From Cyanophora paradoxa CCMP329 (lineage: Eukaryota > Plantae > Glaucophyta): a stretch of 64,000 nt of DNA. Under the pieces are notes generated by a model, which saw only the letters and a list, made by a program, of their open reading frames with translations, was not told where the DNA came from and ran no database searches. Shown here piece after piece: positions 1-16,100 of the stretch. The DNA lies in contig QPMI01000631.1 in NCBI GenBank assembly GCA_004431415.1, positions 1 through 64,000 of the forward strand, written 5' to 3'. Position numbers and translations under genes: made by a program. Every line of letters begins with the position of its first letter. Position 1 is the stretch's first letter.

Positions 1-56
1 TGATGCGATATAAACGCGGTTTATAAAAATTATCTCTCATTCTAATAAAGATACAA

Positions 57-619
57 ATGCCTCCCCAAACGAAAAGATAGGGATCCCAGCTGGGGCTGTT
101 GGCTATTCAGGTGGTGGAAACAGTGGATCTATTAACACTGAACCAATGAAATTCAATGGTATGAATGAAGTCCCCTCAACCCCAAGAAGAACCCCTTAAT
201 GCTGCCTATGAGGAATCAGTCGATGACAAAGCCCCAGTTCAACTGCTGACAACTCAACATCTCACCAGAAGCCTCAAAATGAAGCTGTTGCTGAGGGTGC
301 CAGGCGAATTATTGGTGCTGCTGATGATAAAGGTTTAGGCTTGCAAGATCTTCACTGGCTCGCAAAGGTGAGGGTCTTAGTAAGGAATCGACAAGGTAAT
401 CAGTCTATGGCTGGTGAAGTCACATACAAGACTGCTCCCACTCAAAATATTCATCGAATTCCCAAGGCTCAATGGGATGAGATGACTGCTAAACTCAAAG
501 ATCTGGAAGCCAAATCAAGTGCCTTGGAGCAGTATGTTACTGAGAAGAAAGAGAGAGCCAAGCTAAAGGAGATGCTTCGAAAGGAAGTTTATAAATGGGA
601 TCACTGGTGTCCCAGATAA
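57..619 (+). CDS. Hypothetical element protein with coiled-coil C-terminus; frameshifted 5' half
   Basis: ATG at 57 behind the element promoter-like motif. Reading continues by frame-hopping (MPPK..IGIPAGAVGYSGG..QEEPLNAAYEES..GARRIIGAADDKGLG) into ORF 341-619 (WDEMTAKLKDLEAKSSALEQY). May continue to ~1089. Confidence 0.45.
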
Positions 620-1094
620 ACAGTTTATTGCTAAGAAGAGAACCAAATCGATGAGCAAGCAGTAGATTGAAATGAAACAAAGACCCAGAAAGGAACCATT
701 GAACCTGGTGCCACCAAAGCTGAGTAGAAAGGGAGTTGCCCCCAAAAATATAGAAAGACGAGTTTGGCTTTAATTATCTCTGTTTCTATTAGAGACATGG
801 ATATAATACGAAAGTTTTCGAGATGTTCAGTCTGCATGTGGTGAGCAATTGCCACAGTGGATCGCTGTGAGACAAGAGTGGAGTTTTGAGATGTCAGATA
901 ATGAGGATAATGCTTCTGAAAGGCAAGAGAGAGAAGGAGATCAACAGTTTCTGTGGAGTCAATGCAAGCAGACCCACAGAGTATACATATGAGCAACAGG
1001 AGTATCCAAGGAGAAGTTCTTTACCTGGTGAAACGTTTTCTCAGCAAATATTAATGGAGGATACAATTAAGTTTGATCGAGTTTACTAGTGATG

Positions 1095-1268
1095 ACTTTA
1101 ACTGAGGGTGCTATTAGACACATTCTAGCAAAGCAGAAACGATATAGAGAGGACCCAGCATATAGAGAGTATAAGAAACAACAAGCCCTGGCATCCTATT
1201 ATCGCAGAAAAGCCCAAAAAGAGGAGAGAGACCCAGAGGGAGACCGATTAAATATTATTGCCTACTGA
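1095..1268 (+). CDS. Small basic protein, possible AT-hook in an alternative frame
   Basis: Manual translation MTLTEGAIRHILAKQKRYREDPAYREYKKQQALASYYRRKAQKEE... A shifted frame at ~1229 reads RPRGRPIKYY (AT-hook core). Confidence 0.45.
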   Translation, partial: TLTEGAIRHILAKQKRYREDPAYREYKKQQALASYYRRKAQKEERDPEGDRLNIIAY

Positions 1269-1444
1269 TAGTAGCAATGGACCCACAGGTCTATAAGATA
1301 CTTGAGAAAAAGCGTCTCAGTATGCTACTGAGGCAGCTATTAAAGTTTACAGACAGGAACTGGTGTTCGCAACAAAAAATGACTTAAGAAAAAGTAGATA
1401 GGTTGTATTGAGGAAAAATTATTTCGTATCTACTATTAAAGAGA

Positions 1445-1836
1445 ATGCCGAATATCCGCAAGATACTCACAGATGATGAAAAAGCAGAAAGCAACTGAGA
1501 AAAGGAGCAAGATGCCAAAGAAAACGCGAAGCCTATCATAAAAAGAAGGAGGAACGATTATCCCAAGGAGCGCTACAGTTCACACACCAGAAGAACTCAA
1601 AAGATGCCCTCAGACACCAGAGGAAATACAGGGAAAAATGAAGAATATCGCGAACAGAAAAAGGCGAAAGCGCTGGAATACTACCACAAGAAAACGAACT
1701 ACCAAGACACCCAAAGAGCATAAACCGGTTGGAAGACCTCGGAAATATATCGAAGAATAAATTCTCGATCGAAACAAATTTTGTAGAAATCGATTTGATC
1801 GGAGGCAAAAAAATGACAGCTTTCTTCCCTTTTTAA
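1445..1836 (+). CDS. Small K/R/E-rich basic protein, frameshifted
   Basis: ATG 1445 behind the same promoter-like motif. Fragments MPNIRKILTDDEKAE, RHQRKYREK, EEYREQKKAKALEYYHKK resemble the upstream small ORF. Confidence 0.4.
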
Positions 1837-1973
1837 AAACTGTACCTATATAATCGAGACAGTATCCCGACCCAAAACTACTTAAGGACTTGGCAAATAA
1901 TAGGTATATATAAAGACAATTCTCCTTCCGAAATTATTTTCTTCGTAAAGGTAGAAGTCCCCCAAAATCGAAA

Positions 1974-4547
1974 ATGAACAAAATCGAGAAAATCGCCACC
2001 CTGTTGAAAATGCTACATTCCTTAGTACTCTCATTGGTGATCGCAACAAGGTCACCCATGTATGATTTCTTGAAGATGCCTTGAAGCCATTGATAATAGC
2101 AAGGTTAAGACCTGGGCTGAATGCATTCAGCCTGAACAAGTCACCAGAGTTTACCTGGACCTGGATAAATTCGCTGATTTGAAGGAGAACATTGCTTGAA
2201 AACTATGCTGAGCTGAAACTGTTGTAAGAGAGATGAGAGATAAGCTATGGAAGCGATCTGGACCATTCGATTAACGATATTGCTGTTGCAGTTCGCCATA
2301 GAAGGGTTTATTTGATCAAGGAGGATGTCACCAAGTTCAAGATCTCAGCCCACTTATCATTAAATCGCTTGCATGCAAACATGAAGATATCCCAAGCTTT
2401 TCAAAGCTATGGGATTGGTGAAAAATGAGGATTATGACAGTGGAGTTTACAGCTCCACACAGAACCTTATCTGCCTCAATTGCTGCAAAGGTGAGACTCT
2501 GGATGCTCAAAATAAATCAAAGAAAGATGTTGATAAAAACGTTTGCTTTAAGAAATTCGTTGACTGTGACAAAGTGTTAATGCGAAATGAGGACTTCTTT
2601 GTATCTTTCTTCTCAGCTTCTACTAAACTTGTGATGAATCGAATATTTCTGCATTCGCAAATTATAGCCTGAGCCAAAACCAGTTAAAAAGGAGCCAAAA
2701 AGTGATAAAGTGAAGACTGAGAAGGTAGAAGCTGAAAAAGACACTGAACCGAAAATCCTGTTACTTTCGAACTGCTACAAAGTGTTATAATGGGTCTCAA
2801 TGCTGAAAGAGCCAGCGAGTATAAGACTTGGATTGATGTTGGACTGGTCATCATCAATGTTGGGGAAGACAACAAATTTACCCTAAAATGCAGGCTGAAC
2901 TCTTCCACCAATTCTCAGAACAGAGTGACAAGTATGATTATGATGAATGCCAGGAAAAGTTTACACAGCTTCGCAGAAGCAAGAAGAAGGCTGAGCCTGG
3001 CAAAGTGTTGACCTTCAAATCCTTGGTTTATTGGTTGAGCAAAGATAACAATGAGCTTTTCAAGGAACTCTTCCCCAAAAAGTATGCATTCCTACCAGAG
3101 GACACAGATGAAATCGATTACAAGACTGCAAGTATCCTCCTTTGGCTGAACATTACAATGTGCATAAGAGGTATTTCAATGCTCGCATGCATCATGTTGA
3201 AAATGTTGGTTGTGTGATGCTCTGGGATGAACAACTACTTTGCTGGATGCCCAAAGACATTGGAAAACTGTCTACAAAGCATTTCCCCCACTTGATGCAT
3301 AAGGTGATTGTGAATGAGGGGACAGATAATGAGAAAGAGAAATGGGAGCAATCATTTAGGAAATGGATTGTGGATCCAACAGCCACAAGATCAACTTACA
3401 TGGATTTCCTCCACTCCTGCTACTCTCAGTGCAAAATGCAAGTCTGTATTTAATCTCTATCCAGGAATGAAGGTCGACCATCAGCAATTCGAAAATGCTC
3501 CAGAGGATGTAACTGCTGAGATGATTAAGCCTTTCCTTGATCACTTGTTCTTAATGTCTGGTGAGGATCAAAATACCTATGAATATCTGTTGAAATGGTT
3601 TGCCCACATGCTGCAAAGCCTGGGGAACTCAATGGAGTATCCTTAATCTTCATTGGTGAACAGGGAACTGGTAAGAATGTGTTGGTTTGATACTTTCCAA
3701 AAGAAGATACTTGGAGATGCCCTGAGTTATGCAACTGGTAAGCCAAAAGAGATCTGTTTGGTCGATTTGCCCACAATAGAGAGGATAAGATCTTGATTGT
3801 TTGAATGAAGCCTCAGGCAAGGACACATTCGAAAATAATGATATGCTTAAAGATCTCATTACTTCTGATAAGATTGTTATTGAACACAAAGGGATAGATT
3901 CATACACAAAAGCAACTTTGCCAGGATTATATCACCAGCAATAACAACATTCCAGTTAAAATTGAAGCTGGAGATAGGCGATTTGTGGTTGTTGAAGTTA
4001 GTAAGAAATTCGCAAAGGATAGGTCATACTTCCTTCCACTTGTAAAATGGCTTAATGATCACTGCAATATTCGAAACATTGCCCACTATTTGAGAACCAA
4101 AGTTGAATGTGAGGATGTGAACTGGATTGCTGATAGACCCCTTACAAATAAATACTATTTAGCCAGCAGGTGTGCGCTCCAATCATCCTTATGTTCACTA
4201 AGTGGCTTGTGGATCGAGGCTTAATTTCCGAGAATAAATGCAAGTCTGGTAGCCTTGTGGAAACCTGGAAATGGTTCCAGGAGTTCATTACCAGCAATAA
4301 ATATAAAAACGATTATAATAGTCGCAGATATTATACAGAAATGCGAAGTGTTACATATATCCAAGTGAAAACTACAAATGGTAAACAATACTATCATTTC
4401 CTATTCCCACAAGTATTTGAGGAATTCAGAAAGATGAAGCTTGTAGATGATGAGACCATTGAGGAAGAAGCTAATCCAAGGATGAAACAAGAACTACCTG
4501 CTGCTGATCCTGATGCATCAGATTATGACTCTGATGTTGAAGTTTAG
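1974..4547 (+). CDS. D5-like primase-helicase: AEP primase + PriCT-2 + SF3 helicase (multiple frameshifts in this sequence)
   Basis: AEP motifs RVYLDLDK (~2146-2170), KISAH (~2339-2353), DYDSGVYS (~2430). PriCT-2 EYKTWIDVGLVI..LFHQFSEQSDKYDYDECQEKF..LTFKSLVYW (2790-3040). Walker A GEQGTGKN (3655), Walker B ILIV-NEA (~3790), motif C ITSNNNIPV (3931), GDRRFVV (3970). Split over at least 8 ORF pieces. Confidence 0.9.
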
Positions 4548-4555
4548 GTTTACTC

Positions 4556-4738
4556 AAAAGTGGACTCACAGTTGACTCAAATTTATCATAAAAGACCCAA
4601 ACAGTCTTTTATTTATGGTTTATTTATCGATTAGGTTGACTAAGTGGGGGGAGTTGACTCATTTTTTCACAGATTCTAAAAGAGGACTCTGCCCTAAAAA
4701 GAAATAAAAAGTGCCTCAACTCCACCACTAAGTCAACC
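4556..4738. promoter_or_regulatory. Origin-like iteron module, copy 1 (inverted 25-bp arms around an AT-rich spacer)
   Basis: GGTTGACTAAGTGGGGGGAGTTGAC (4634-4658) and its imperfect inverse (4714-4738) lie immediately downstream of the helicase stop. The left arm is the exact reverse complement of 10926-10950. Function is inferred. Confidence 0.6.
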
Positions 4739-4789
4739 AAAAAATGATTTAAGAGATAGAAAAATATATTTATATGTAACTAGTAAGAA

Positions 4790-5194
4790 ATGGCTGGAAC
4801 AGATCATGATTCTGGATCGATCTATATGATTGAGAGTCAGGAAATGAACAAAGTCTACATAGGAAGAACCTCACAGCCACTTCAAAAAAGATGGAGACAA
4901 CACAAATCAGGTCAAATGCCATCTACAGCAGACCTATGCAAGGCTTCTGATGTGAAGTTCTCAGTCCTGTATTCAAGTAAGAAGGGTGGGCATGAAGACC
5001 TAATGAACAGAGAAGCATATTACATGTATCTCTTTGAACCTTGGATAGTCAATTTACAAAAACCGAAATCCCGATTTAGGATTAATAGGTTTTTGCGATT
5101 CCATTCAGAGGAAGCCAGTGATCCATTAAAACATTTTAAATTGCGTTTAGAACATCCTAAAATAAAATATCCCCTTAGAATAGGAACAAGTTAG
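4790..5194 (+). CDS. GIY-YIG endonuclease
   Basis: GSIYMI-x8-VYIGRT, conserved Arg (KRWRQH), Glu (NREAYY) and Asn (IVNL). Confidence 0.9.
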   Translation: MAGTDHDSGSIYMIESQEMNKVYIGRTSQPLQKRWRQHKSGQMPSTADLCKASDVKFSVLYSSKKGGHEDLMNREAYYMYLFEPWIVNLQKPKSRFRINRFLRFHSEEASDPLKHFKLRLEHPKIKYPLRIGTS

Positions 5195-5199
5195 GAATA

Positions 5200-8100
5200 A
5201 TGCCCCGAATTACCAACAAACTCATAAGGGAGAAGAAATGGGAACTCATGGGATTGCTGGGAACACTTTATGCAGCCATGAAATTACAGAGGCTGAATAT
5301 GACCGGGAAATAGATTTAATTGCAAAGGGCAGACCCACTTTAAGCAGATTAACCAGAAAAGCAAATAACCTATATGATAAAATTGAAACCTTGGATGAAT
5401 TGGATAGGCTTAGGCAAATAGAACCAGATGCAGAAGATGGAACAGCCATGAATGAATTATATCGCTGGCTCACTTACAGAGCCAGAAGGGAAGTTGTTGT
5501 AGATGTGATTGAATTCCTGGATAGAATTGCTACATCCTTCCAAATCGATTAAAGCAGGGTTTAGATCAATTCAGGGCAATCAAGGTTCGCTTGTCTTTTA
5601 TCTGCAAGTTCGTTAAAGTGAGCAATCCACAGGTTTGGATATCGAAATACATTTACAGTGATTACTTTGTATTAACCAGGTCGAGAAATATTCGAACTGA
5701 GCTGAATAAAGCAGCCCAAATGTGTCAGGAGCAGATGAATGTGGTTGATAGCTATCGCTTAGAAAGAATTGAAATACTCAGAGTGGCTATTATGAGTTAT
5801 GCTCCAACTGGTGGATGCTTTCTACAAACCCCAGAGTGGATTGCTAGGAAGAGAGCCACAGTAAATATTCGAAATATTGATGATTCCTGCTTCGAAAATG
5901 CAATTTTGGCATATATTCACAGAAAAGCGATAAACTCCCATAAGAGGAATGAGCTTTCACAATATCGCAAATGGAAATACTCAGCAATCGCTTATAATCC
6001 GCTGGCTCTCAATTTCGATAACATCCATTCCCTGTTGCCTGTGATGCTGATATTATTGATAAATTCGAGGCTCAAAATGCAGGCATTAGCATTAATATAT
6101 TTGGAATCGATGGAGAGGTTATTTATCCCTGCATCAATCAAGTAACCCAGGCAGAAAGCATAAGGTTAATCTCATGCTGATATTTGATGATGAAGGGAAT
6201 GGTCACTATATTACAATCATGTCCCTTTCAAGGCTATTGAAAGTAAACCATGAAACATACAATGATCAGAAGTTACACTACTGTGACACATGCTTATCTC
6301 GATTCAGGTCTGAGGCTAAACTCACTGCTCATGTGGACTCAAACAGATGCATTGATTGGAGACTCTCAAAGGGAATCACACCAAAACCTGAGACCACCAT
6401 AGAGTTTGGACTGAAAAACCTCAGGAAAACTGTTTGGCTTCCTGTTGTGGTTTACTGCAAGATTGAACATAGAAGCATCCCCATTGATGCATCGAAATCC
6501 AAGAGGGAAGTCTCAGCAGTCAACATTAGAATAGTCACTGGGGCAGATGTTCAGGAGTTTCGATTTGAGGGTCAGGATCCAATGGGAGGTCTGTTTGAAT
6601 GCTTGGAGTCCAAAGCAAGAGAGCTAATCGATTTCCTGTTCACCAATATTCCCATGAATGAACTCACAGATGAGCAAAAGGCTATTTACAGAGCTACCAA
6701 ACACTGTTACCTTTGCAGTGAGAGGTTCACCAAGGAAAACTTCAAATGCAGGGATCATGATCACCACACAGGTAATTACATTGCACCTGCATGCAGAAAC
6801 TGCAATCTCCATAGGAGAATCTCAAAGCAAACAAAGTAGCAGTGGTTGTTGACCAAATGGATGACTGTGGGACATTCATTTTCAGAAAAATAGCAGGCAT
6901 GGGTGATAAAAAGCGAATCGAAATCCTTTCGAAAAACTTTGATCAATACCTTTCATTGCAATGGGGTCTTTACAAGTTCATTGATGCAAGTAATTTTATG
7001 GACTTTGGGGCTGCTGATGTAGATGAGTTAATGAGCAAATTCCAGGCTTTCAGAAGGCTTTCACACTCAGTATATGGATTGGACCCAGTTCATTATGTAT
7101 CTGCACCTGGGTTATCTTGGGATGCTATGCTTAGGACCACCAAGGCAAAAATAGAGCTTATAAGTGATGTAGAGCAATACGAATTTGTTGAGAGGGGAAT
7201 CAGGGGTGGCTTTGCAACAATGCCTTGTAGGTATGCTGAGGCTGATGGTGAGAACTCCCATATAATGCTGTTTGATGCTAACAACTTGTATGGCTACTGT
7301 TTGAGTCAGCCAATTCCAGTTGGTGATTTTAGATGGGAGACCGAATTCAACCCACAAGATAACAGATCCAGTTTCCTAGAAGTTGATCTGGATTACCCAA
7401 TTAGGCTATATCTAGACCACAGTGATTTCCCCCTAATTATTAACAAGAAAATAGTAGAATATGCAGAATTATCACAATATCAAAAGAGCCTATTAGATCT
7501 CTCAGGAGAAGAGCTTGATAAAACCCCAAAGCTAACTGCAACCTTTGGTTCTGTGACAAACTATGTGATTTCTGAGCCTCTCCTACAGTATCTGTTGGAC
7601 AAAGGGGTGAAATTAAAGAAAATTCACAGGGTCCTATCATTTACTGTGGCTCCTGTAATGAAACCCTATATTGAACTGAACACTGAGATGAGAAGGAAAG
7701 CAGTGAATAAATTCGAGGCTGATTTCTATAAGCTCATGAATAATTCAATCTATGGAAAATGCATTGAATCTTGCAGAGGTAGATCTGTGGTTAAGATTGC
7801 AAACAGTGAGAAACTGTTTATGAAATATGCAGCCTCCCCATTGGTGAAATCAACCAGCCCCATAAACGAAAAAGCAGTTGCCTTTGAGTTTTACATAAAG
7901 CATGTGAAGCTAGATAAGCCAGTTGCTATTGGGGCTTATGTTCTGGATGCAGCCAAACTGCATAACTACAAGTTCTTCTATGATACTGTAAGGTCCCAAT
8001 GGACAAAAGCAAAGTTACTATTCCATGATACTGACTCCTTTTGTCTATATATCGAATCTAAGACCCTACAAAAAGATATAGAGAATATATCCTATGCATT

Positions 8101-8440
8101 AGACCTTGGAGGTGATTCCAGAATGACCCCAGGTAAATACAAAAATGAAATGCCTGGCTCTGCTATATTGGAGTATGTGGGTCTGAGAGCTAAAGTTTAC
8201 AGTTTCAGAACTGCTGAGATTGAGAGGAGTAAGCTCTCTGGGACTTCAACTGAGGAACTCCAATTTAATGATTTTAAACAGTGTTTATTTGCAGGTATCA
8301 GCAAGACTGTGACTGCAAAGCAGAAAAGAAGGGCAGATCACACAATAATAGACACTGTGAGTAGAAGGGTTGCCCTAAACTGCTTTGATGCAAAGAGATA
8401 CATCTTACCAGATGGTATTAATTCTGTTCCTTTTAATTAA
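5200..8440 (+). CDS. polB: Protein-primed family B DNA polymerase (Polinton type) with C2H2 finger, EndoVII-like Zn insert and degenerate exonuclease; frameshifts near 5255, 5552, 6040 and 6835
   Basis: N-terminal GGCFLQTPEWIARKRATVNIRNIDDSCF, C2H2 CDTC..H, CYLC..RDHDHHTG..ACRNCN, YGLDPVHYVSAPGLSWDAML, GIRGG. Motif A DANNLYG, motif B KLMNNSIYGK, motif C HDTDS, GLRAKVYS. Long A-B and B-C spacers are typical of pPolB. Start at 5200 is inferred; the core 5591-8440 is secure. Confidence 0.93.
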
Positions 8441-8443
8441 GAG

Positions 8444-9828
8444 ATGCCAGCAACTGGAAGAATAGTTAGGAGAACCACTGAGCAACTACAAGGTAACCTA
8501 CTGCCTATCACAGTTCCCAAGGAGGAAAAGGGAGAATCTCGAATTGTAAAAAAGTCAGAGATGAAAGAGCTTGTCCCAGTAGAGATCCCAGTTGCTATTG
8601 CAGTGAAAGAAACCAGCAAGATTGCCAAGAGATTCTATGATGTGAGAACTGGTTACAAAGGGCTTCAAGCTATGAGGGCTGAGTTACCTGATGAATCCTA
8701 TAAGCAGTTGCAAGAGTTCTATAAAAACAAGAAGTTGTTCAGATCAATGCACCTGCTATATCTAGGAAGAGAGATCCCATGGTCCCAATTAGGCAACCCC
8801 TTGATACCTATGTGATTGATTTGCTCTTTTTCCCAGCTTATAAGAAACAAAACAATGGCTATGATACCTTTATGACTGCAATGGAATCTACACTGAGAAC
8901 TGGGTATATCATACCTATAAGGGATAAATCAGCTCTCACTACATTAGCTGCATTTAAACAGCTTGAAATGAGAGTGGCAAGACCCATAGTAAAAGTTCAA
9001 TCAGATGCTGGGAGTGAATTCCAAAATCGAATATTCCAGGAGTATTTATCTAGTAAATTCATAGAACACCAAGTGAGTGGAACTGCAGACCACAGAAGCC
9101 AAGGTCGAATTGAAGCCTTTAACAAGCAGATTAAGAGACTGATCACAAACTACTGCATAGCTAATAACACAGCTAGATTCTTTGATGTGTTAGGTGATAT
9201 TGAGTATAATTACAATAATACAGTCCACTCAGCTACTAAGATGAAACCAGGCGAAACTACAGAGGAGCATTATAGGTATATAGTGGGATTAGAAGATGAA
9301 AGATTCAAGAAATCAATAGCTTACCTTGATACCATGCAGCCTGGCATGTTTGTTAGAGTGAAAGTTGAGAAGAACCCCTTTGCTAAACAGGGTAACAATT
9401 GGTCTAGGATGGTTTACACTGTTGATAGTAGGGAAGGCTTTAAGTTTAAGCTAAGGAGTCCCACTGGTGAGATCATAGAAAACAGGTTTGCTTTCCATGA
9501 GCTGTTGCCTGTGAATGCAGTTGAATATCTAGAAACCCCTACAGTGGATGCCTTGGAGCAAGCTAAAGAGGAAGCCAGGGCTGATGCTGCTATAAGGAGA
9601 GAAGGCATAGAAGCTGCTAATGAAGTCCCAGATAAGCCTTTGATAGAGGCTAGAAAGGAGAAGGCTGGGAAAGTTAACAGGGAACTCAAAAAGCTCACCA
9701 TAGCAGGGACACAGAAACTTTCAGAAGTGAATAGCCAGAGATGGTATAATGACTTTCAGACTACTAAGGAGTCATATACAGCTCCTAAACCTCAAAGAAC
9801 ACTAAGAGAAAGGACCAAAACTAGCTAG
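8444..9828 (+). CDS. int: Retroviral-like (rve, DDE) integrase of Polinton type
   Basis: Catalytic triad YVIDL / QSDAGSEF / GRIEAFNK, YNNTVHSATKMKP, and an SH3-like C-terminal domain. One base missing in the A-run at ~8723-8727 would join ORF 8444-8815 to ORF 8779-9828 (FYKKQEVVQINAPA). No chromodomain. Confidence 0.93.
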
Positions 9829-10199
9829 TTTGCTAGGCAAAAACTCGTTTTTTCCAAATATATGTATGACTGATATACATATATGCATATGATATACACA
9901 TAGTCTTGTAGATCTTATCAAGCGCTTCACAGCGATATGCAGAACGTTGCGTTTTGATGATCTGGTGATGAGATATAACAGTTTGAAGATGCAAAAGTCA
10001 CTTGCCATAGTAGACTTGGTGAAAGACTAGCCCAGGAGTCGACTCGACGGTAAGCCGTTTTTGGCTCAGAGAATAGAGCGCTTGATTTCTGACTCCAACC
10101 TACGCGGTTCAAATCCGCTCGGGAACCTTTACTTCGTTCGCCGTGAAACTTGAAAAGTAAAAAAAAACGCGGTTTTTTCTAGATTAATGCTGTACCCGT

Positions 10200-10720
10200 C
10201 TAGAAAATCAATATTCACGTTTGCTACGATATCTCAACACCAACTTATCAAATCGATGCGCTTAAAACGTCATAAAATCGAGCATTTCAAGGCGGTCACA
10301 GCGCTTATGAGCCATATCGGAATTTCACTAACTGTAACTCCAAATCGCGATGAAACCGATTTTGAATTTTGATTTTAAATTCGATTAAAATCCATTAAAC
10401 GTGAGTTTTTAATATAGATCACTAGGAAGTTATCAAATCGATGCACTGACGGTCGAATATAATCCCATATATCATACATAACAATAACTTGCAATCACAT
10501 ATACGAATCGCAATGTGTATAGATCGCTATTACGATTAAAGCGAGTTTTGAAAATTCAAAACTAATTCGATTAAATTCGATTATAACGAAAGAGTTAAAG
10601 ATCTACATCAAATACTTATCAACTCAATCACCTGATAACATCGAATAATCAACCCAAATCTACTTTAGAGATAATCGTGATTACATATGTGAAATCATCA
10701 ATCTAACACTGCATTTAGTA
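10200..10720. repeat. About three degenerate ~185-bp tandem repeats in the element terminus
   Basis: TTATCAA(A/C)TC(G/A)AT anchors at 10245, 10430 and 10616. TTTTGAA..AATTCGATTAAA anchors at ~10360 and ~10545. Confidence 0.65.
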
Positions 10721-11480
10721 AGCATCTCCCCTTGATTCCCCCTATTATATTATATTTATATTTAAGTGGACTCAAGGTTGACTCATATTAATCGTAAAAG
10801 TAGTAAAAGTATATGGATTTTGTTACGAATTCAATGCAAGGGTTGACTAAGTGGGTTGAGTTGACTCAAATTTCACAGGAAATATTTGGGACCTAAAGTT
10901 TTCTAAAAAGGATTTGAAAAAATGTGTCAACTCCCCCCACTTAGTCAACCCTGACCATAAACAGTAAGGATTTGAGCTAACAAGTATCACAAAGTGAACA
11001 TTTTGAGTCCACTTAGAAGATCCACCTAACAATTTAGAGTCAAATTTACTTGGGAATTCGATTTGTATGAAAAAGTGAGTCCACCCTGACCATATTCAAT
11101 AAGCATTCCTCTTAATCCCCTTGTTTATATTTACATTGATTAATATTTAATACTAAGTGGACTCATGGTTGATTCATATTAATCGTAAAAGGAGTAAATG
11201 TATATAAAAATGTGACCATTTCAATGCTAAGGTTGACTAAGTGGGTTGAGTTGACTCAAATTTCAGAGGAAATTTTGAGATCCAAAGAATATTCTATAAA
11301 AGATTTTGAAAAATGTGTCAACTCCCCCACTTAGTCAACCCTGACCATATACAGTAAGCATTAGAACTTAAATGTATCACAAAGTGAACATTATGAGTCC
11401 ACTTAGAAGATCCACTTTTGAAATATAAGTTGATTTTGCTTGAAATTTCAAAGTTGATCTAAAAGTGAGTCCACCCTGAT
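10717..11480. repeat. Two ~390-bp direct repeats, each containing the origin-like iteron module (copies 2 and 3)
   Basis: TAAGTGGACTCA at 10763/11154 and AAGTGAGTCCACCCTGA at 11073/11463. Inner inverted arms at 10841-10865/10926-10950 and 11231-11255/~11317-11340. Outer inverted pair at 10763-10775/11003-11015. Confidence 0.9.
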
Positions 11481-11494
11481 TGATTATGGTAACA

Positions 11495-11866
11495 AAGTTG
11501 ACTAAGTTGACTAAGTTGAGTCATCTTAAGAAATTCAAGAAGACTAAGAGTTCAAAATGTTTATGAAAAGTGAGTCAACTTAGACCACTTATGGTAACAA
11601 AGTTAAATATTTAATTGATTTAATCGGAAAAGAACATGATTTAATCGAATTTATTGATATAATTCCGATTAGATTCATTTAGGATTCAATTAAGATTAAT
11701 CGAAGTTATAGATATAATTCCGATTAACTACAATTAAGATACAATATCGATTAATCGAGTTTATCGATATAACATCGATTAAATTAATTGAAAATGCATT
11801 TAAAAATATGAAAATTCATGTGAAAATTCAAATAAATTAATCGATTTTATTGATATAACATCGAAT
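11495..11866. repeat. Subterminal 9-bp iterons (AAGTTGACT x3) and four ~32-bp imperfect palindromes
   Basis: AAGTTGACT AAGTTGACT AAGTTGAGT at 11495. TTAATCGA-n-TTAT-n-GATATAA-nnn-CGATTA units at ~11641, 11696, 11751 and 11837. Confidence 0.85.
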
Positions 11867-11941
11867 CACACATATGAATATTCATATTTTAATCCTGAGG
11901 CGGAACGCCGAGGGATTAAAATATGAATATTCATATGTGTG
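11867..11941. repeat. Perfect terminal hairpin (29-bp arms, 17-nt loop) at the element/host junction
   Basis: 11867-11895 is the exact reverse complement of 11913-11941. The loop contains GGCG-GAA-CGCC, and each arm holds the 16-bp palindrome ATATGAATATTCATAT. Confidence 0.95.
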
Positions 11942-12952
11942 CGGCGGCGGCCGCAGCCGCCGGGCAGCGGAACCGCACTGTGACTCTCCTGGACGGCCTC
12001 ATGACGGCGCTCCGCTCGGCGGAAGAGGTTCTGGCCGCCGCCGCCGCGGCCGCGGTGCCGCCGCCCGCGGCGGCCAACGCGTCAGCATCTGCGCTCCGCG
12101 CAATCGCGGCGGGCCGCATGACCCCTGGCCTCTTCTTCCTCCTTGCCAACTCGTGCGAAATCGAACCCCTTAGGCCTTCAATAATTAATTTCTGCCTCCC
12201 TCCTACATCCTTCGGCTCCTCTGAAGCGCCCCGGCCCAGGATCATGGCGCTTCCCGGCGGCAACTCGGCCGTGGCTGCCAGTTTCACCGCCAGCGCAGTC
12301 CGCACTCTGGCTCTGCCCTTGTCCCCGCGCGCCTCAGATTGCAAGCTGGGCCGCCTGCAGATTCGCCGGCTGGACACCACACGCCGAACCTCCCTTATCC
12401 TCTTCTGCGCCGCCGCCGGCCTCGCCGTCTTCCTCATGCATGCCCGCCCGCCCCGCGGGGCGGCGCTCGGGCCGGCGCCCGCTCGCCCCGCCCTCACCGG
12501 GCGCCCAGATTTGGGGTGATGCTGCCCGTGCTCTGGTACGTGAGGCGGACCCGCGACCGCCTTCTCCGAGTTTTCCTGCAGGCTCGCGCGGCCCGTCCCC
12601 GCCCCTGCCGCCTCGAGTTGAAGACCCGGCTCAGATCCCGCGGAGCACGGCCCGCGAAATTCGAGCGGAAATCCTCGCCCCCCTTTTTCCCAAGCGCGAG
12701 CCGGGCCCCGAGCTCGAGGAGGCGGAACCAGATGCCGCAGGCAGAGAGGCGCAGGCGCAGGCGGGCGGTGTCAATGCGCACGCTAACGGGTCGGCCCCAC
12801 CCAACCTGCGATCGGACGAAGCGGCGGCGTCGTCATCGTCGGAGCGGGAGGGCGGGTCCGAGGGGGACGGGTCGGAGGAGGGGGAGGCCCCCGCGCTCGG
12901 GTCCGAGGCGCCGAGCGGCGATCGCGAGGACGAGGTGCGCCGCGCCGTCTGA
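11942..12952 (+). pseudogene. 3' part of a host gene apparently interrupted by the element
   Basis: An Ala-rich open frame runs right up to the junction with no host start codon. Host-type introns (e.g. GTGCGA ~12152..CCAG ~12239), a hydrophobic segment SLILFCAAAGLAVFL, and an acidic tail ending at TGA 12950-12952. Confidence 0.5.
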
Positions 12953-13186
12953 AAATTTCGGGATTGCGATGGAATTTCGAAGCTCGCCGATAAAGCCTGC
13001 TCGCTGCTCGCCTCTGCACGGCTTCCGCACCTCACTCCCCTGTGCGCCCCACACAGGCCGAGGAGGCGGAGGCGGCAATGGTCGACTACGCCCGCCTCGA
13101 GGCGCGCCTTGCTTTTATGAAAAATGATCAAGTCTTATAAGACATCATAAGAGTTTTGCGCCTCGCTCGGCTTATAGTTACGCTTA

Positions 13187-16100
13187 TGTTTAGCCTCGCG
13201 ATCGCTCATGGGGCGCAGATGGAGGGCGGGAGGGCCCGCGTCTTCGGTCCGCCACGCTCGCGCACCGCCACGTCTTCGGTCCGTCGCTCAGCTGCGCCGC
13301 CCGCCCGCCCGCAGGCCCTCTGGCGGGCCTCTTCCTCCGCTTCTGCCTCGTCGTGCTTCTGGCCCTCGGCCTCGTCGCCGCGTCCTTCGCCGTCGTTGTG
13401 GCGGCCACCCGCGCCGCGCAGCGCCGCAACCTCGTCTCCGCCGCTGTCCGGCCCCGCGCCCCTCCGGATCCGCCTGTTCCCTGGCTATGACCCGCCGCCT
13501 CGGCCGCGGGCGCTCACTCAAATGTCGCCGCAGGCGACAGCGACACAGTACGGCGCCGCGGCACTCGCGGCGCTGTCGGTCGAGCTCGCCGTCGCCCAGA
13601 CGCCCATCGGCGCGCCCTTCTGGCGCGGCGGCTTCAGGCAGGTCCAGGCTTTGATGGGGCGGATTGCGCAGGCGTTCCTCGCGAACGTGCGCCGCAAGGC
13701 CGCTGCGCTTGCGGCGATCCCCCCGCCGCCCATGGCCACCGACGCCGCGTGCAGGGCACCAATGCGATCCTCTTTGGCGGTTCCGTCCTGACACTCCCGG
13801 GGACCATCGGTGAGCTCGAGGGCCGCTCTAGATTCGAGGGCCGTGACTAGATTTTAGATGCGCTAGGCACTTCACCTCTCTCCTAATCGTGACGCTCCCT
13901 TCCAACAGACACCGGTGTCAACGGCATCGACAGTCACCTCTACTACGACGTGTCGGCTGCCGTCGACGCCACCCGCCGCTTCGCCGTCGCCCGTGCGCGG
14001 GCCGGGCGGGCCTGCGCATGAGCCCCCTCCGGTGCTGGCGCCAATCGCGAGCCGCCGCAGTGGCGGCGCAGGCACACGAGAAGACGGACCAGGCGATCGC
14101 GGCGCTCTCGCTCTGCTTCGTGATCGCCGTCCCGCTCCTCGTCTGCCTCTACGCCGCCTCCCTCGCCCCCTCCATTCACGTGCATGCGGCCCCACCCCGC
14201 GGCCATCGCTCACATTGAGCCGAGTATCGAGCCGTGTCCGGATCCGCAGCGGGTCAAGAGCGAGTTCCTGGGCGATGCGAGCATGCTTCTCTACATTCCC
14301 GCCGAGGCCCGGGAATTATATATGGAATTTTGGAAATGTGGTGGAGCTCGAGCCGAGGCCTGAGCGTACGTATACGCGCCCCCGCAGGTCCTCGGGGATC
14401 TGCCGGCGCTGCGGCGGCTCGTGCGGGCGAGCTCGCTGGCGGGGTCGGACCCCCTCGCGGTCCTCGCCTCCACCCGCGAGCGCAACGAAGCCCTCCTGCG
14501 GGCCTCCCTCGGCGCGGCCCCGCTCGCGAACCCTCTCCATCCCGCTCGCCATTTGCAACGCTAACCGACGAGCGCGCGTGCGCAGACCCAACGTTTATCG
14601 TCGACGCGGAGGGCGTCATTCAGGCCCGTCCCGCTGTCGCGCCGCTCTGCTTCGGGGGCCTTTCAGCGCGCCGCAGAAAGCCAACGGGGCGGCGGCTGCG
14701 ATCCTCAACTGCGGTGCCCCCGAGGACCTCGCGGGGTCCCGCCTCGAGGAGTTCTTCCCCTCCCTGCGGCTCGCGCCTCACGGCCGCCGCCTCAGGTGCG
14801 CGGGCCGATGCGAGGCTAGGGCCCTCCGCAGCTGAGGCCGCCGGCGCCCCTCGCAGCGCGGGGTCGATTGAAGAGGTCACCCACAGCGTCCCTGTCCGGA
14901 GCGGAGTCATCGGTGGCAACCCCGAGGCTCGCCCGCGCCCTTCCCCGTCTCTGCATGTTTGTTTGCAATTGGTTCAAGTGCCCGGCAGGAGGACTCGATC
15001 GAAGGGGTGCGGCGGGGCGGCGAGCGCTTCCCCGCGCAGGTCTCCCTCGGCGGGGGCCTCACCGAGAGCACCGACCGCGAACGTGCGCCCTCTAATTCGA
15101 TCCCGAGCCCCGCCTGAAATCGAACCCCGCCCCGCCCCGCCCCGCCGGGCTGCCCGCCTGAGCTCGGCGGCCGTAGGGGAGGAGCCCTTCTTCGTGGTGG
15201 TGGCGAGGGACGTGTCGGCGCTCGTCGCAGAGCAGCGCGCCCTCCGCGCCGCCGTCGTCCGCCCCGCCGCCCTAGGCCCTCGCTCCGCCCCGCTCCGCCA
15301 GATTTGACTCTCTCTGCTCTGCAGGAGCGGGCGGACGCGCTGCTGCGGACGATGGTGCCCGCCGACATCGCGCGCCGCCTCATCGCCGGCGAGCAGCGCA
15401 TCGCCGACGTGCGCCGGCGCCCGCCGCACGGGACGGGACGAATTCGAAGCTTTCTCCGACGGCGCGTGCGCAGCTGCTGGACGACGCCACGCTCGCCTTC
15501 TTCGACATCCCGGCGCGCCGGCGCCCCACGCACTTCGAACTCCTCTCCTCTCTCTGCTGCCCGACCCGGCCTCTCTTCTGACCATTCGAATTCTTTTCCG
15601 GCCTGCCCGCGGCCGCAGGGCTTCGCTGCGCTCTCAGCGGAGATGCCGCCCGCGCAGACGGTCGCCCTCCTCCAGGCCCGCCCCCGCCCCCGCCCCCACC
15701 GCCCCCCGCCCCCGCCGGCCCGCTAAGGCGTTGGGGGCGGGGGCGGGGGCGGCGTGCGTGGGCGCAGTCGGTCTTCCGCGCCTTCGACGCTGTCAACGAT
15801 CGCTTCCGCGTTGAGAAGGCGCGCGCTGGCCCCTAGCCTCCGGGCCGGGCCGCCGGGCCGCCGCCATATGCATCGCCCACCGAGTGCCTCGCTGAATGCC
15901 GCACCCGATCGCTCGCGAGCAGGTGAAGCTTATCGGGGACACGGTACGTAATTATAATCCTTAGGAATTTACTTTCAAGTCCTTACGCACGGCCGGCGCG
16001 CGCCCCCAACGCGGTGCCCCCCGGCCCGGCCCGGCCCGCAGGCGTTCTACATCACGCGGGAGCCACCGGAGCAGATGGTCGAGTTCTGCCTCGCTGTCTT

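Follow-up and report, generated by a model that had tools for sequence, protein, structure and literature searches.

A nested palindrome at the host boundary of a multi-copy Polinton-like element in Cyanophora paradoxa, and its possible role as a hairpin end

Several well-known modes of end maintenance in linear viral genomes provide the backdrop for the locus considered here: the right end, formed by a 75-nucleotide (nt) palindrome, of an AT-rich Polinton-like element in the genome of the glaucophyte Cyanophora paradoxa CCMP329. The stretch analyzed, hereafter the window, spans 64,000 nt (positions 1 to 64,000, forward strand, of contig QPMI01000631.1 in assembly GCA_004431415.1). Parvoviruses, including the adeno-associated virus (AAV), carry terminal hairpins and undergo rolling-hairpin replication with an HUH Rep/NS1 nickase. 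The hairpin telomeres of poxviruses, asfarviruses and chloroviruses are covalently closed, and palindromic junctions join two genome arms. The protein-primed polymerases of adenovirus and phi29 slide or jump back on short terminal reiterations, and classical Polintons have tips of the form 5'-AG..CT-3'. To our knowledge, neither the copying of the ends of Polintons, of Polinton-like viruses (PLVs) and of virophages, nor their entry into and exit from the chromosome, has ever been shown experimentally. Poxvirus hairpin telomeres are mentioned in the accessible portion of PMC11296320, and that of PMC12220804 gives the target-site duplications (TSDs) of Polintons as 5–6 base pairs (bp); palindromes or hairpins are not mentioned in the accessible portions of PMC12220804 and PMC12721341.

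The closest described systems come from the protist Halocafeteria seosinensis. The accessible portion of a July 2026 preprint (bioRxiv 10.64898/2026.07.28.741278) reports palindromes at the extremities of terminal inverted repeats, beside the TSDs, in virophage subtypes 1, 2, 5 and 6 as well as PLV subtype 4, with the palindrome of virophage subtype 5 measuring 52 nt. It also describes some elements with two replication genes, proposes hairpin-primed replication, names accidental annealing as an alternative and calls for experiments. Thus, terminal palindromes of integrated virophages and PLVs have already been described in one protist; the Cyanophora tip adds a case with a nested design on an element bearing a protein-primed family B polymerase (pPolB). 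As far as that portion of the preprint goes, the two sets of elements both end their terminal repeat in a palindrome several tens of nt long that adjoins the host, and they share an integrated state, an rve integrase and a GC content below that of the host; the idea of hairpin priming is likewise a proposal in both. However, the Halocafeteria palindromes have 52 nt and occur mostly in elements without pPolB, whereas the Cyanophora element combines a 75-nt palindrome with pPolB and primase remnants, such that a preferential link with replication genes other than pPolB is not seen here. Its tip further stands apart from the Halocafeteria ones described there in its nested 16-nt palindromes, structured GC loop and (CA)3 tip.

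Here, we found that this palindrome constitutes the exact boundary between the element and host DNA at the right end and that it is present, without variation, on essentially all copies of the element. Because its arms are complementary at 29 of 29 positions, its loop continues the helix and the integrated form equals a fully extended duplex palindrome, we infer that it additionally has a fold-back function. Accordingly worded, our proposal is that the palindrome, as the outermost stretch of an integrated Polinton-like virus present in many copies, also works as the hairpin end of its free linear genome, a reading on which we regard the scales as evenly poised.

The original prediction had described, at 11867–11941, perfect 29-bp arms each with a nested 16-bp palindrome, a GGCG-GAA-CGCC mini-hairpin in the loop and a TGTGTG end at the switch in GC content, all of which are indeed found there. 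The outer arm is the exact reverse complement of the inner arm (29/29), and a search of the window with the arm, allowing up to three mismatches, recovered just two matches, one per strand and each with zero mismatches (shuffles, 0/100). The complementarity is complete not only in the 16-nt palindrome, ATATGAATATTCATAT, nested in each arm but also in the non-palindromic flanks, CACAC/GTGTG and TTTAATCC/GGATTAAA; the right tip of the element reads ..CATATGTGTG-3', with the dinucleotide CA occurring three times at the tip. The symmetry center lies at 11904. Folded as single-stranded DNA, the 75 nt have a predicted energy of -33.6 kcal/mol (z = -11.4), with none of 200 shuffles equally stable. 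Scanning all 64 kilobases (kb) for hairpins with arms of at least 16 nt returned only this palindrome and a second instance at 15678–15752. The latter, in the host part, is a GC-rich low-complexity inverted repeat with 21-nt arms and GCCCCC repeats, and is probably simple-sequence DNA.

The loop itself shows further structure. Four G-C pairs (11899–11902 with 11906–11909) enclose a GAA triloop (11903–11905), and the remaining positions face each other as the non-Watson-Crick opposites T11896/G11912, G11897/A11911 and A11898/G11910; in the predicted fold, T11896 pairs with G11912, while G11897/A11911 and A11898/G11910 make up a 2x2 internal loop. Stable DNA motifs include tandem G.A pairs and G-N-A triloops, and if the tandem G.A and GAA motifs form here, A11904 would be the sole truly unpaired base of the hairpin. 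With the arms held fixed and the loop swapped, the observed energy was reached by 11 of 2000 random loops of 35% GC.

The GC content rises from 0.318 in 11001–12000 to 0.705 in 12001–13000, with the switch point at 11941/11942. Hence, the last AT-rich base is also the last base of the palindrome, which upholds the earlier claims that the hairpin lies exactly at the element–host junction and that TGTGTG ends at the GC switch. At this visible end, the palindrome occupies the outer extremity adjoining host DNA, as in the Halocafeteria elements. We considered whether this arrangement might be an assembly artefact. In the Logan contigs of four runs under one organism label, dated 2019–2024 (X1, X2, X3 and X5), those crossing the junction (11914/11916–12925) and those spanning the loop (11881/11882–11934) differ from the window in zero letters, which rules out such an artefact; the assembly may derive from one of these runs, and they are therefore not independent of it.

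The stretch is contained in 20 public runs under this organism label, all stored as 31-mer contigs. Contigs were placed on 1–14000 from runs X1, X2, X5 and X6, and on 11560–12000, with a 3% threshold for variants, from runs X1, X3, X5 and X6. In X1, the word depth of element contigs is about 1300–3500 as against 49–66 for the host contigs to the right, and across five runs the element is 30–70 times (X1) or more deeper than its host flank; word depth is no copy number, and the safe reading of these depths is that the element is multi-copy. The contig holding the loop has a depth of 4721.7 in X1 and 4070.8 in X5, that leading from the subterminal sequence into the inner arm 4315.6 (X1, 11820–11894) and 3746.2 (X5, 11625–11895), and that crossing the host junction 66.2 (X1) and 9.41 (X5). 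In other words, ~91–92% of the hairpin depth is tied to the subterminal sequence of the element, with ~8–9% lying outside the main contig that leads into it. In 11560–12000, no contig of the four runs departs from the subterminal sequence ahead of the hairpin; the only variants at or above 3% are at 11697, 11710, 11794 and 11800, and the last 141 nt (11801–11941) are clean in 4/4 runs. At the outer base of the arm, the GC-rich flanks vary: loose contig ends of 30 letters stand ahead of 11865, 11866 and 11868 and past 11943, 11944 and 11945, and, among the runs placed on 1–14000, one contig joins 29 other letters to the element from 11941. One loose end of X5, before 11868 on the plus strand, might represent the opposite loop orientation beside a host flank and was not counted. 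Thus, the hairpin is neither missing from other copies, the depths of loop and subterminal sequence being near equal, nor a sequence that occurs independently across the genome, given the share of its depth linked to the element; it is on essentially all copies, and these do not vary in it.

For the Halocafeteria type, the defining trait is presence in every complete copy of a subtype and at each of its two ends. Here, by depth, the hairpin count about equals that of the subterminal sequence, with the left and right ends indistinguishable, the palindrome being the same on both strands. We had entertained the depth ratios as proof of a hairpin at both ends and dropped this, as the internal contigs of X1 themselves vary from 1292.8 to 3523.3. 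The ratio of hairpin to host-junction depth is ~71 in X1 and ~200–430 in X5, a gap between runs that could stem from GC bias of the libraries or from extra non-chromosomal copies. A further lead comes from the apex of the palindrome: in 4/4 runs (X1, X3, X5 and X6), a contig matches from 11905 outward after unrelated letters, which are absent from the 64-kb window. Because the match starts at 11905 and the center is 11904, the breakpoint falls within 1 nt of the apex; it is what would remain after a hairpin or cruciform tip had opened, and we take it as a lead only. A uniform multi-copy hairpin tip on an element with pPolB, in a host with many public runs, offers a practical system for studying such ends.

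Briefly, we advance the following mechanism for the proposed hairpin end. In single-stranded DNA, or where a duplex end breathes, the arms would pair to yield a nearly fully paired rod comprising 29 Watson-Crick pairs, the T.G pair, the tandem G.A/A.G, the four G-C pairs and the GAA triloop. The paired 3' end (..GTGTG-3'), folded on 11867–11871, might then prime the copying of the interior; alternatively, the hairpin might serve to cap the genome end. Once the inner border had been nicked at 11866/11867, copying of the unfolded hairpin would regenerate the palindrome in its extended duplex form, which would be the substrate inserted by the rve integrase and the form seen in the chromosome. A candidate for the nickase, as a guess from domain content, is the EndoVII-like domain within the polymerase, and the four subterminal repeats together with the arm-like motif might be binding sites for proteins acting at the end. 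The perfect match of the arms (29/29), as against 62–80% for the adjacent repeats and 90% for the internal arm motif, is as expected if one arm is copied from the other, and an integrated form equal to the extended duplex palindrome is what hairpin transfer produces. The more specific version, namely that a double-stranded DNA (dsDNA) Polinton-like virus with pPolB keeps its ends by hairpin transfer, in the manner of rolling-hairpin replication in parvoviruses or telomere resolution in poxviruses, and has them nicked by the polymerase's own EndoVII-like domain, strikes us as rather doubtful. If it were true, the polymerase itself would supply the nuclease that resolves the ends; the domain is conserved in a large clade of metagenomic pPolBs.

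Beyond Cyanophora, the exact arm pattern has 0 matches in the IMG/VR viral contigs and 0 in the JGI metagenome contigs. For the polymerase, we recovered relatives: four in IMG/VR, whose best segments are 32–34% identical, and at least 515 in metagenomes, of which 80, with 30–42% identity, were used. We surveyed these 84 loci (4 from IMG/VR and 80 from metagenomes; 511 kb) for palindromes with arms of at least 18 nt and at most two mismatches and found 15, three of them no more than 200 nt away from a true contig end: L032 132–194, L034 15–75 and L048 15–76, all upstream of pPolB. The density of palindromes is 0.098 per kb near contig ends and 0.025 per kb elsewhere. L034, whose polymerase is 34% identical, starts at base 1 with a 90-nt hairpin that bears a small GC hairpin at the tip (z = -12.0), a design that resembles the Cyanophora tip, the sequence being unrelated. 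Terminal palindromes were not found at the ends of the four IMG/VR loci (L001–L004), and the junction near 5190 of L014, between an AT-rich pPolB element and DNA of 62–73% GC, is without a palindrome. The same L014 (1–10402) codes for a 1254-amino-acid (aa) polymerase of the clade in a similar type of host and is without an integrase after the polymerase. An apparent "hairpin" in L014 and L016 proved to be a direct repeat of a palindromic unit.

For the nuclease that would resolve the end, the original prediction had named a GIY-YIG protein or an EndoVII-like insert, and both suggestions need amendment. The Endonuclease_7 match (24.6 bits as against a cut-off of 23.6; 2.3e-05) lies within pPolB, the pieces of which, spread over three frames, run colinear with the one-piece pPolB (1288 aa) of L002, a relative from IMG/VR; the latter also has an Endonuclease_7 match directly ahead of its polymerase domain (L002 9374–9583). 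The motif of the domain, CxxC..HH[DCN]H.TG..CxxCN, stands just ahead of the polymerase domain; in the alignment of this region (A2, 13 members) C, C, H, H, G, C and N are invariant, and a loose motif search found it upstream of the polymerase in 13 of the 84 loci, many of which are too short to contain it, along with one false match (L014, in GC-rich DNA). Given the colinearity with L002, the invariant residues and this distribution, the EndoVII-like part is a native conserved domain of the polymerase clade rather than an insertion. Searching PDB by sequence with the single open reading frame (ORF) gave 0 matches, and a literature search for endonuclease VII together with Polinton retrieved no description of a fusion of an EndoVII-like domain with pPolB. 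The GIY-YIG ORF, for its part, is facultative: an X2 contig has 4727–5156 (430 nt) swapped for 28 other letters, and the depth over 4671–5137 is about half that of the neighboring bins. This fits a mobile, homing-type nuclease and, because some copies lack it, the GIY-YIG protein is the poorer candidate for the nickase.

When set against the better-known systems, the tip shows partial likenesses to each. As in parvoviruses and AAV, it is a palindrome at the terminus that holds small palindromes within and is asymmetric at a few positions, which would yield flip and flop forms; likewise, the palindrome is fully extended in the integrated or duplex form, and a 3' end could self-prime. In contrast to these viruses, the Cyanophora element is dsDNA, exceeds 12 kb and has its own polymerase and integrase, and no HUH nickase was found in the part seen. 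With the telomeres of poxviruses, asfarviruses and chloroviruses it shares an AT-rich, incompletely paired hairpin with tandem repeats further inward (here units of ~55, 185 and 390 nt), but its palindrome is only 75 nt long and joins host DNA; no RuvC-like resolvase is seen, the candidates in place of the poxvirus type being only the EndoVII-like HNH domain in the polymerase and the GIY-YIG ORF. The origins of adenovirus and phi29 resemble it in the protein-primed family B polymerase, the short reiteration at the tip (CACACA) and the AT-rich tip, but are not hairpins. Finally, it shares with Polintons/Mavericks the pPolB and rve genes, a long non-coding terminal region and a multi-copy presence in a eukaryotic genome, whereas its right tip reads ..TGTGTG-3' rather than having the classical AG..CT form, and the portion of the element lying in the window yielded no capsid genes. 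If hairpin ends were general, the replication models of a whole virus realm, which now rest on protein priming at inverted repeats, would need revision.

Several observations weigh against the hairpin-end reading. On the side of the replication machinery, a protein-primed polymerase needs no hairpin primer, and neither of the expected enzymes turned up in searches with Pfam and PHROGs: there is no HUH Rep/NS1 nickase among the ORFs of 1–10372 and no RuvC-type resolvase in the 12 kb of the element seen. The EndoVII-like profile matches T4 endonuclease VII in PDB weakly (E = 0.008), beside Hpy99I and zinc-finger noise. As regards the fold, shuffles of the loop's own letters match the observed energy in 114 of 2000 cases, so that the modeled loop structure, unusual for the composition of the element, is marginal relative to its own letters. 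With respect to the copies, the window displays the right end only, the left one lying outside it; rare contigs (depths 5.5 to 19.4) have one changed letter inside the hairpin; and a recent burst from one master copy would account equally well for the uniformity of the copies. The alternative orientations of the loop are hidden by the combination of 31-mer contigs with a 29-nt arm: flip and flop share all 31-mers inside the palindrome and are indistinguishable except by 31-mers spanning the whole 29-nt arm. The breakpoint at the apex counts as just one event, whatever its depth. Among the relatives, the enrichment at contig ends comprises three cases only, and the palindrome of L048, with its CCGGAAGTG repeats preceding a TATA-like box, is possibly a promoter. 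In Halocafeteria, the palindromes are, in the accessible portion of the preprint (10.64898/2026.07.28.741278), mainly in elements without pPolB.

The alternative that best withstands the data dispenses with folding altogether, and we treat it as a tentative but real possibility. Here, the palindrome would be a signal in the duplex end, i.e., two inverted protein-binding sites (the 16-nt palindrome with its flanks) at the tip of the terminal repeat, read as dsDNA by the integrase and/or the complex of polymerase and terminal protein, with CACACA as the template for jumping back. The element does encode pPolB and an rve integrase, its tip is the dinucleotide CA repeated thrice, and the use of short terminal reiterations by adenovirus and phi29 offers a precedent. 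Moreover, each arm is partly palindromic, like the sites of dimeric proteins, and a third, degenerate arm motif (11800–11822) lies with the four palindromic repeats within 230 nt, in the manner of binding-site arrays. However, binding sites need neither 29/29 complementarity that includes the non-palindromic flanks nor a central structured GC mini-hairpin; the neighboring repeats, presumably sites too, have drifted to 62–80% identity; and the apex breakpoint is not predicted by such a signal.

An unlikely explanation is that the palindrome is a neutral by-product: fold-back synthesis, or accidental annealing at a single-strand break, would once have generated it at an end of a master copy, and all later copies would have inherited it without function. 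Copies nearly identical over the last 141 nt are what a recent burst from a master copy leaves, and fold-back copying yields perfect arms with an untemplated turn; accidental annealing is also the alternative named in the accessible portion of the Halocafeteria preprint (10.64898/2026.07.28.741278). Yet terminal palindromes recur across unrelated sequences, in several of the Halocafeteria subtypes covered there and at, or close to, the contig ends of three distant pPolB relatives, the turn is a 17-nt structured element instead of a minimal loop, and the tips of mobile elements are under the strictest selection in cis.

We consider it very improbable that the palindrome is a transcribed hairpin processed to small RNAs (microRNA (miRNA)-like or hairpin RNA), which might, for instance, silence the element. 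Though a long perfect hairpin would be a Dicer-type substrate if transcribed, and Rfam miRNA models give sub-threshold matches (the best being mir-3149 with 44.3 bits and mir-3118 with 43 bits), these scores compare with gathering thresholds of 100 and 89 bits, respectively, both strands score alike, as for any palindrome, and the exact position at the end of the element is left unexplained. Still less credible is an independent fold-back element, akin to a miniature inverted-repeat transposable element (MITE), or a host palindrome that was hit by the insertion of the virus: the ~8–9% of hairpin depth outside the main element-leading contig speaks for it, but the composition is that of the element and not of the 70% GC host, the remaining ~91–92% of depth is joined to the subterminal sequence, differing host flanks abut the outer arm and the other 52 kb of the window holds no second copy. 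Lastly, Helitrons have a Rep/helicase gene and a 3' end with CTRR and a short hairpin 10–12 nt inside the end; a Helitron end was rejected, with no Rep/helicase found by Pfam and PHROGs, an end reading TGTGTG and a hairpin that is the very tip.

The features of the palindrome and of the rest of the element in the window are collected in Table 1.

Table 1. Coordinates of the terminal palindrome, the subterminal repeats and the predicted genes of the element
Feature	Position	Strand	Basis and remarks
Terminal palindrome, 75 nt, outermost bases of the element	11867..11941	no strand	Sequence reading, inverted-repeat search, folding, hairpin scan; GC-rich host-type DNA from 11942
Inner arm, 29 nt, CACACATATGAATATTCATATTTTAATCC	11867..11895	+	5' start CACACA; holds 16-nt palindrome 11872-11887
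Loop, 17 nt, TGAGGCGGAACGCCGAG	11896..11912	+	GGCG-GAA-CGCC at 11899-11909
Outer arm, 29 nt	11913..11941	+	3' end TGTGTG at host junction; holds 16-nt palindrome 11921-11936
Degenerate internal copy of arm motif, TTAAAAATATGAAAATTCATGTG	11800..11822	+	11803-11822 vs 11871-11890, 20 nt, 90% complementary
Four subterminal repeats, TTAATCGAnTTTATnGATATAA..CGATTA, imperfect palindromes	11641..11866	+	Starts 11641, 11696, 11751, 11837; last abuts hairpin
Longer repeats, non-coding	10229..11479	+	~185-nt units 10229-10650; 390-nt unit x1.8, 10763-11479; GTTGACT-rich
Integrase, rve-type, two frames (8441-8815, 8725-9828)	8441..9828	+	Pfam rve; PHROG transposase 4.2e-11; homologue P0001
pPolB, three frames	5525..8440	+	Pfam DNA_pol_B_2 2.5e-14; EndoVII-like zinc/HNH motif ~6705-6806
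GIY-YIG nuclease ORF, facultative among copies	4787..5194	+	Pfam GIY-YIG 1.4e-10
Primase(-helicase) remnants, several frames	2385..4547	+	Pfam PriCT_2 1.4e-05 (2837-3217); phrog_1156 DNA primase 8.3e-05 (3314-3646)

Bases 1–11941 hold the right part of the element, with the window beginning inside it. Judged by its genes, pPolB and the rve integrase, the element is Polinton-like. The DNA_pol_B_2 match reaches 53.5 bits, well over the cut-off of 25.8. The Pfam rve match of the integrase scores 22.3 bits, below the cut-off of 32.6 bits, and the assignment draws instead on the PHROG transposase match (4.2e-11) and on PF00665 in the homologues P0002 and P0003. A close homologue, P0001 (463 aa), spans both frames of the integrase, its identity being 79% in the core and 64% in the N-terminal piece; because this one-piece protein covers both, the frame breaks belong to this copy or to the assembly. 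The primase, polymerase and integrase are each split between frames, and short-read contigs differ from the window by single-base gaps in 1700–4300, at 12–23 per contig. The splits may reflect either a decayed copy or indel errors of the assembly in a repeat. For the capsid module (major and minor capsid proteins, packaging ATPase and protease), the ORFs in 1–2400 matched nothing in Pfam or PHROGs, the element's left part lying beyond the window; the relative L002 has an A32-like ATPase. Querying viral contigs with the integrase gave 25 pattern matches, 0 of which were confirmed. Among the 12 long ORFs of the GC-rich part of the window, there is one match only, to DUF4209.

Between the integrase and the palindrome, 9830 to 11866 is devoid of coding sequence. 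The four subterminal repeats follow the pattern TTAATCGA..GATATAA..CGATTA at a 55-nt spacing, with 4 matches, all on the plus strand, against 0 expected, and are 62–80% identical to a reference copy. GTTGACT-type motifs (e.g., GGTTGACTAAGTGGG..GAGTTGACTCA) occur in both orientations in 4546–4669 and 10752–11600, that is, in the intergenic space ahead of the GIY-YIG ORF and in the 390-nt tandem repeat near the end; they may be promoter or protein-binding motifs.

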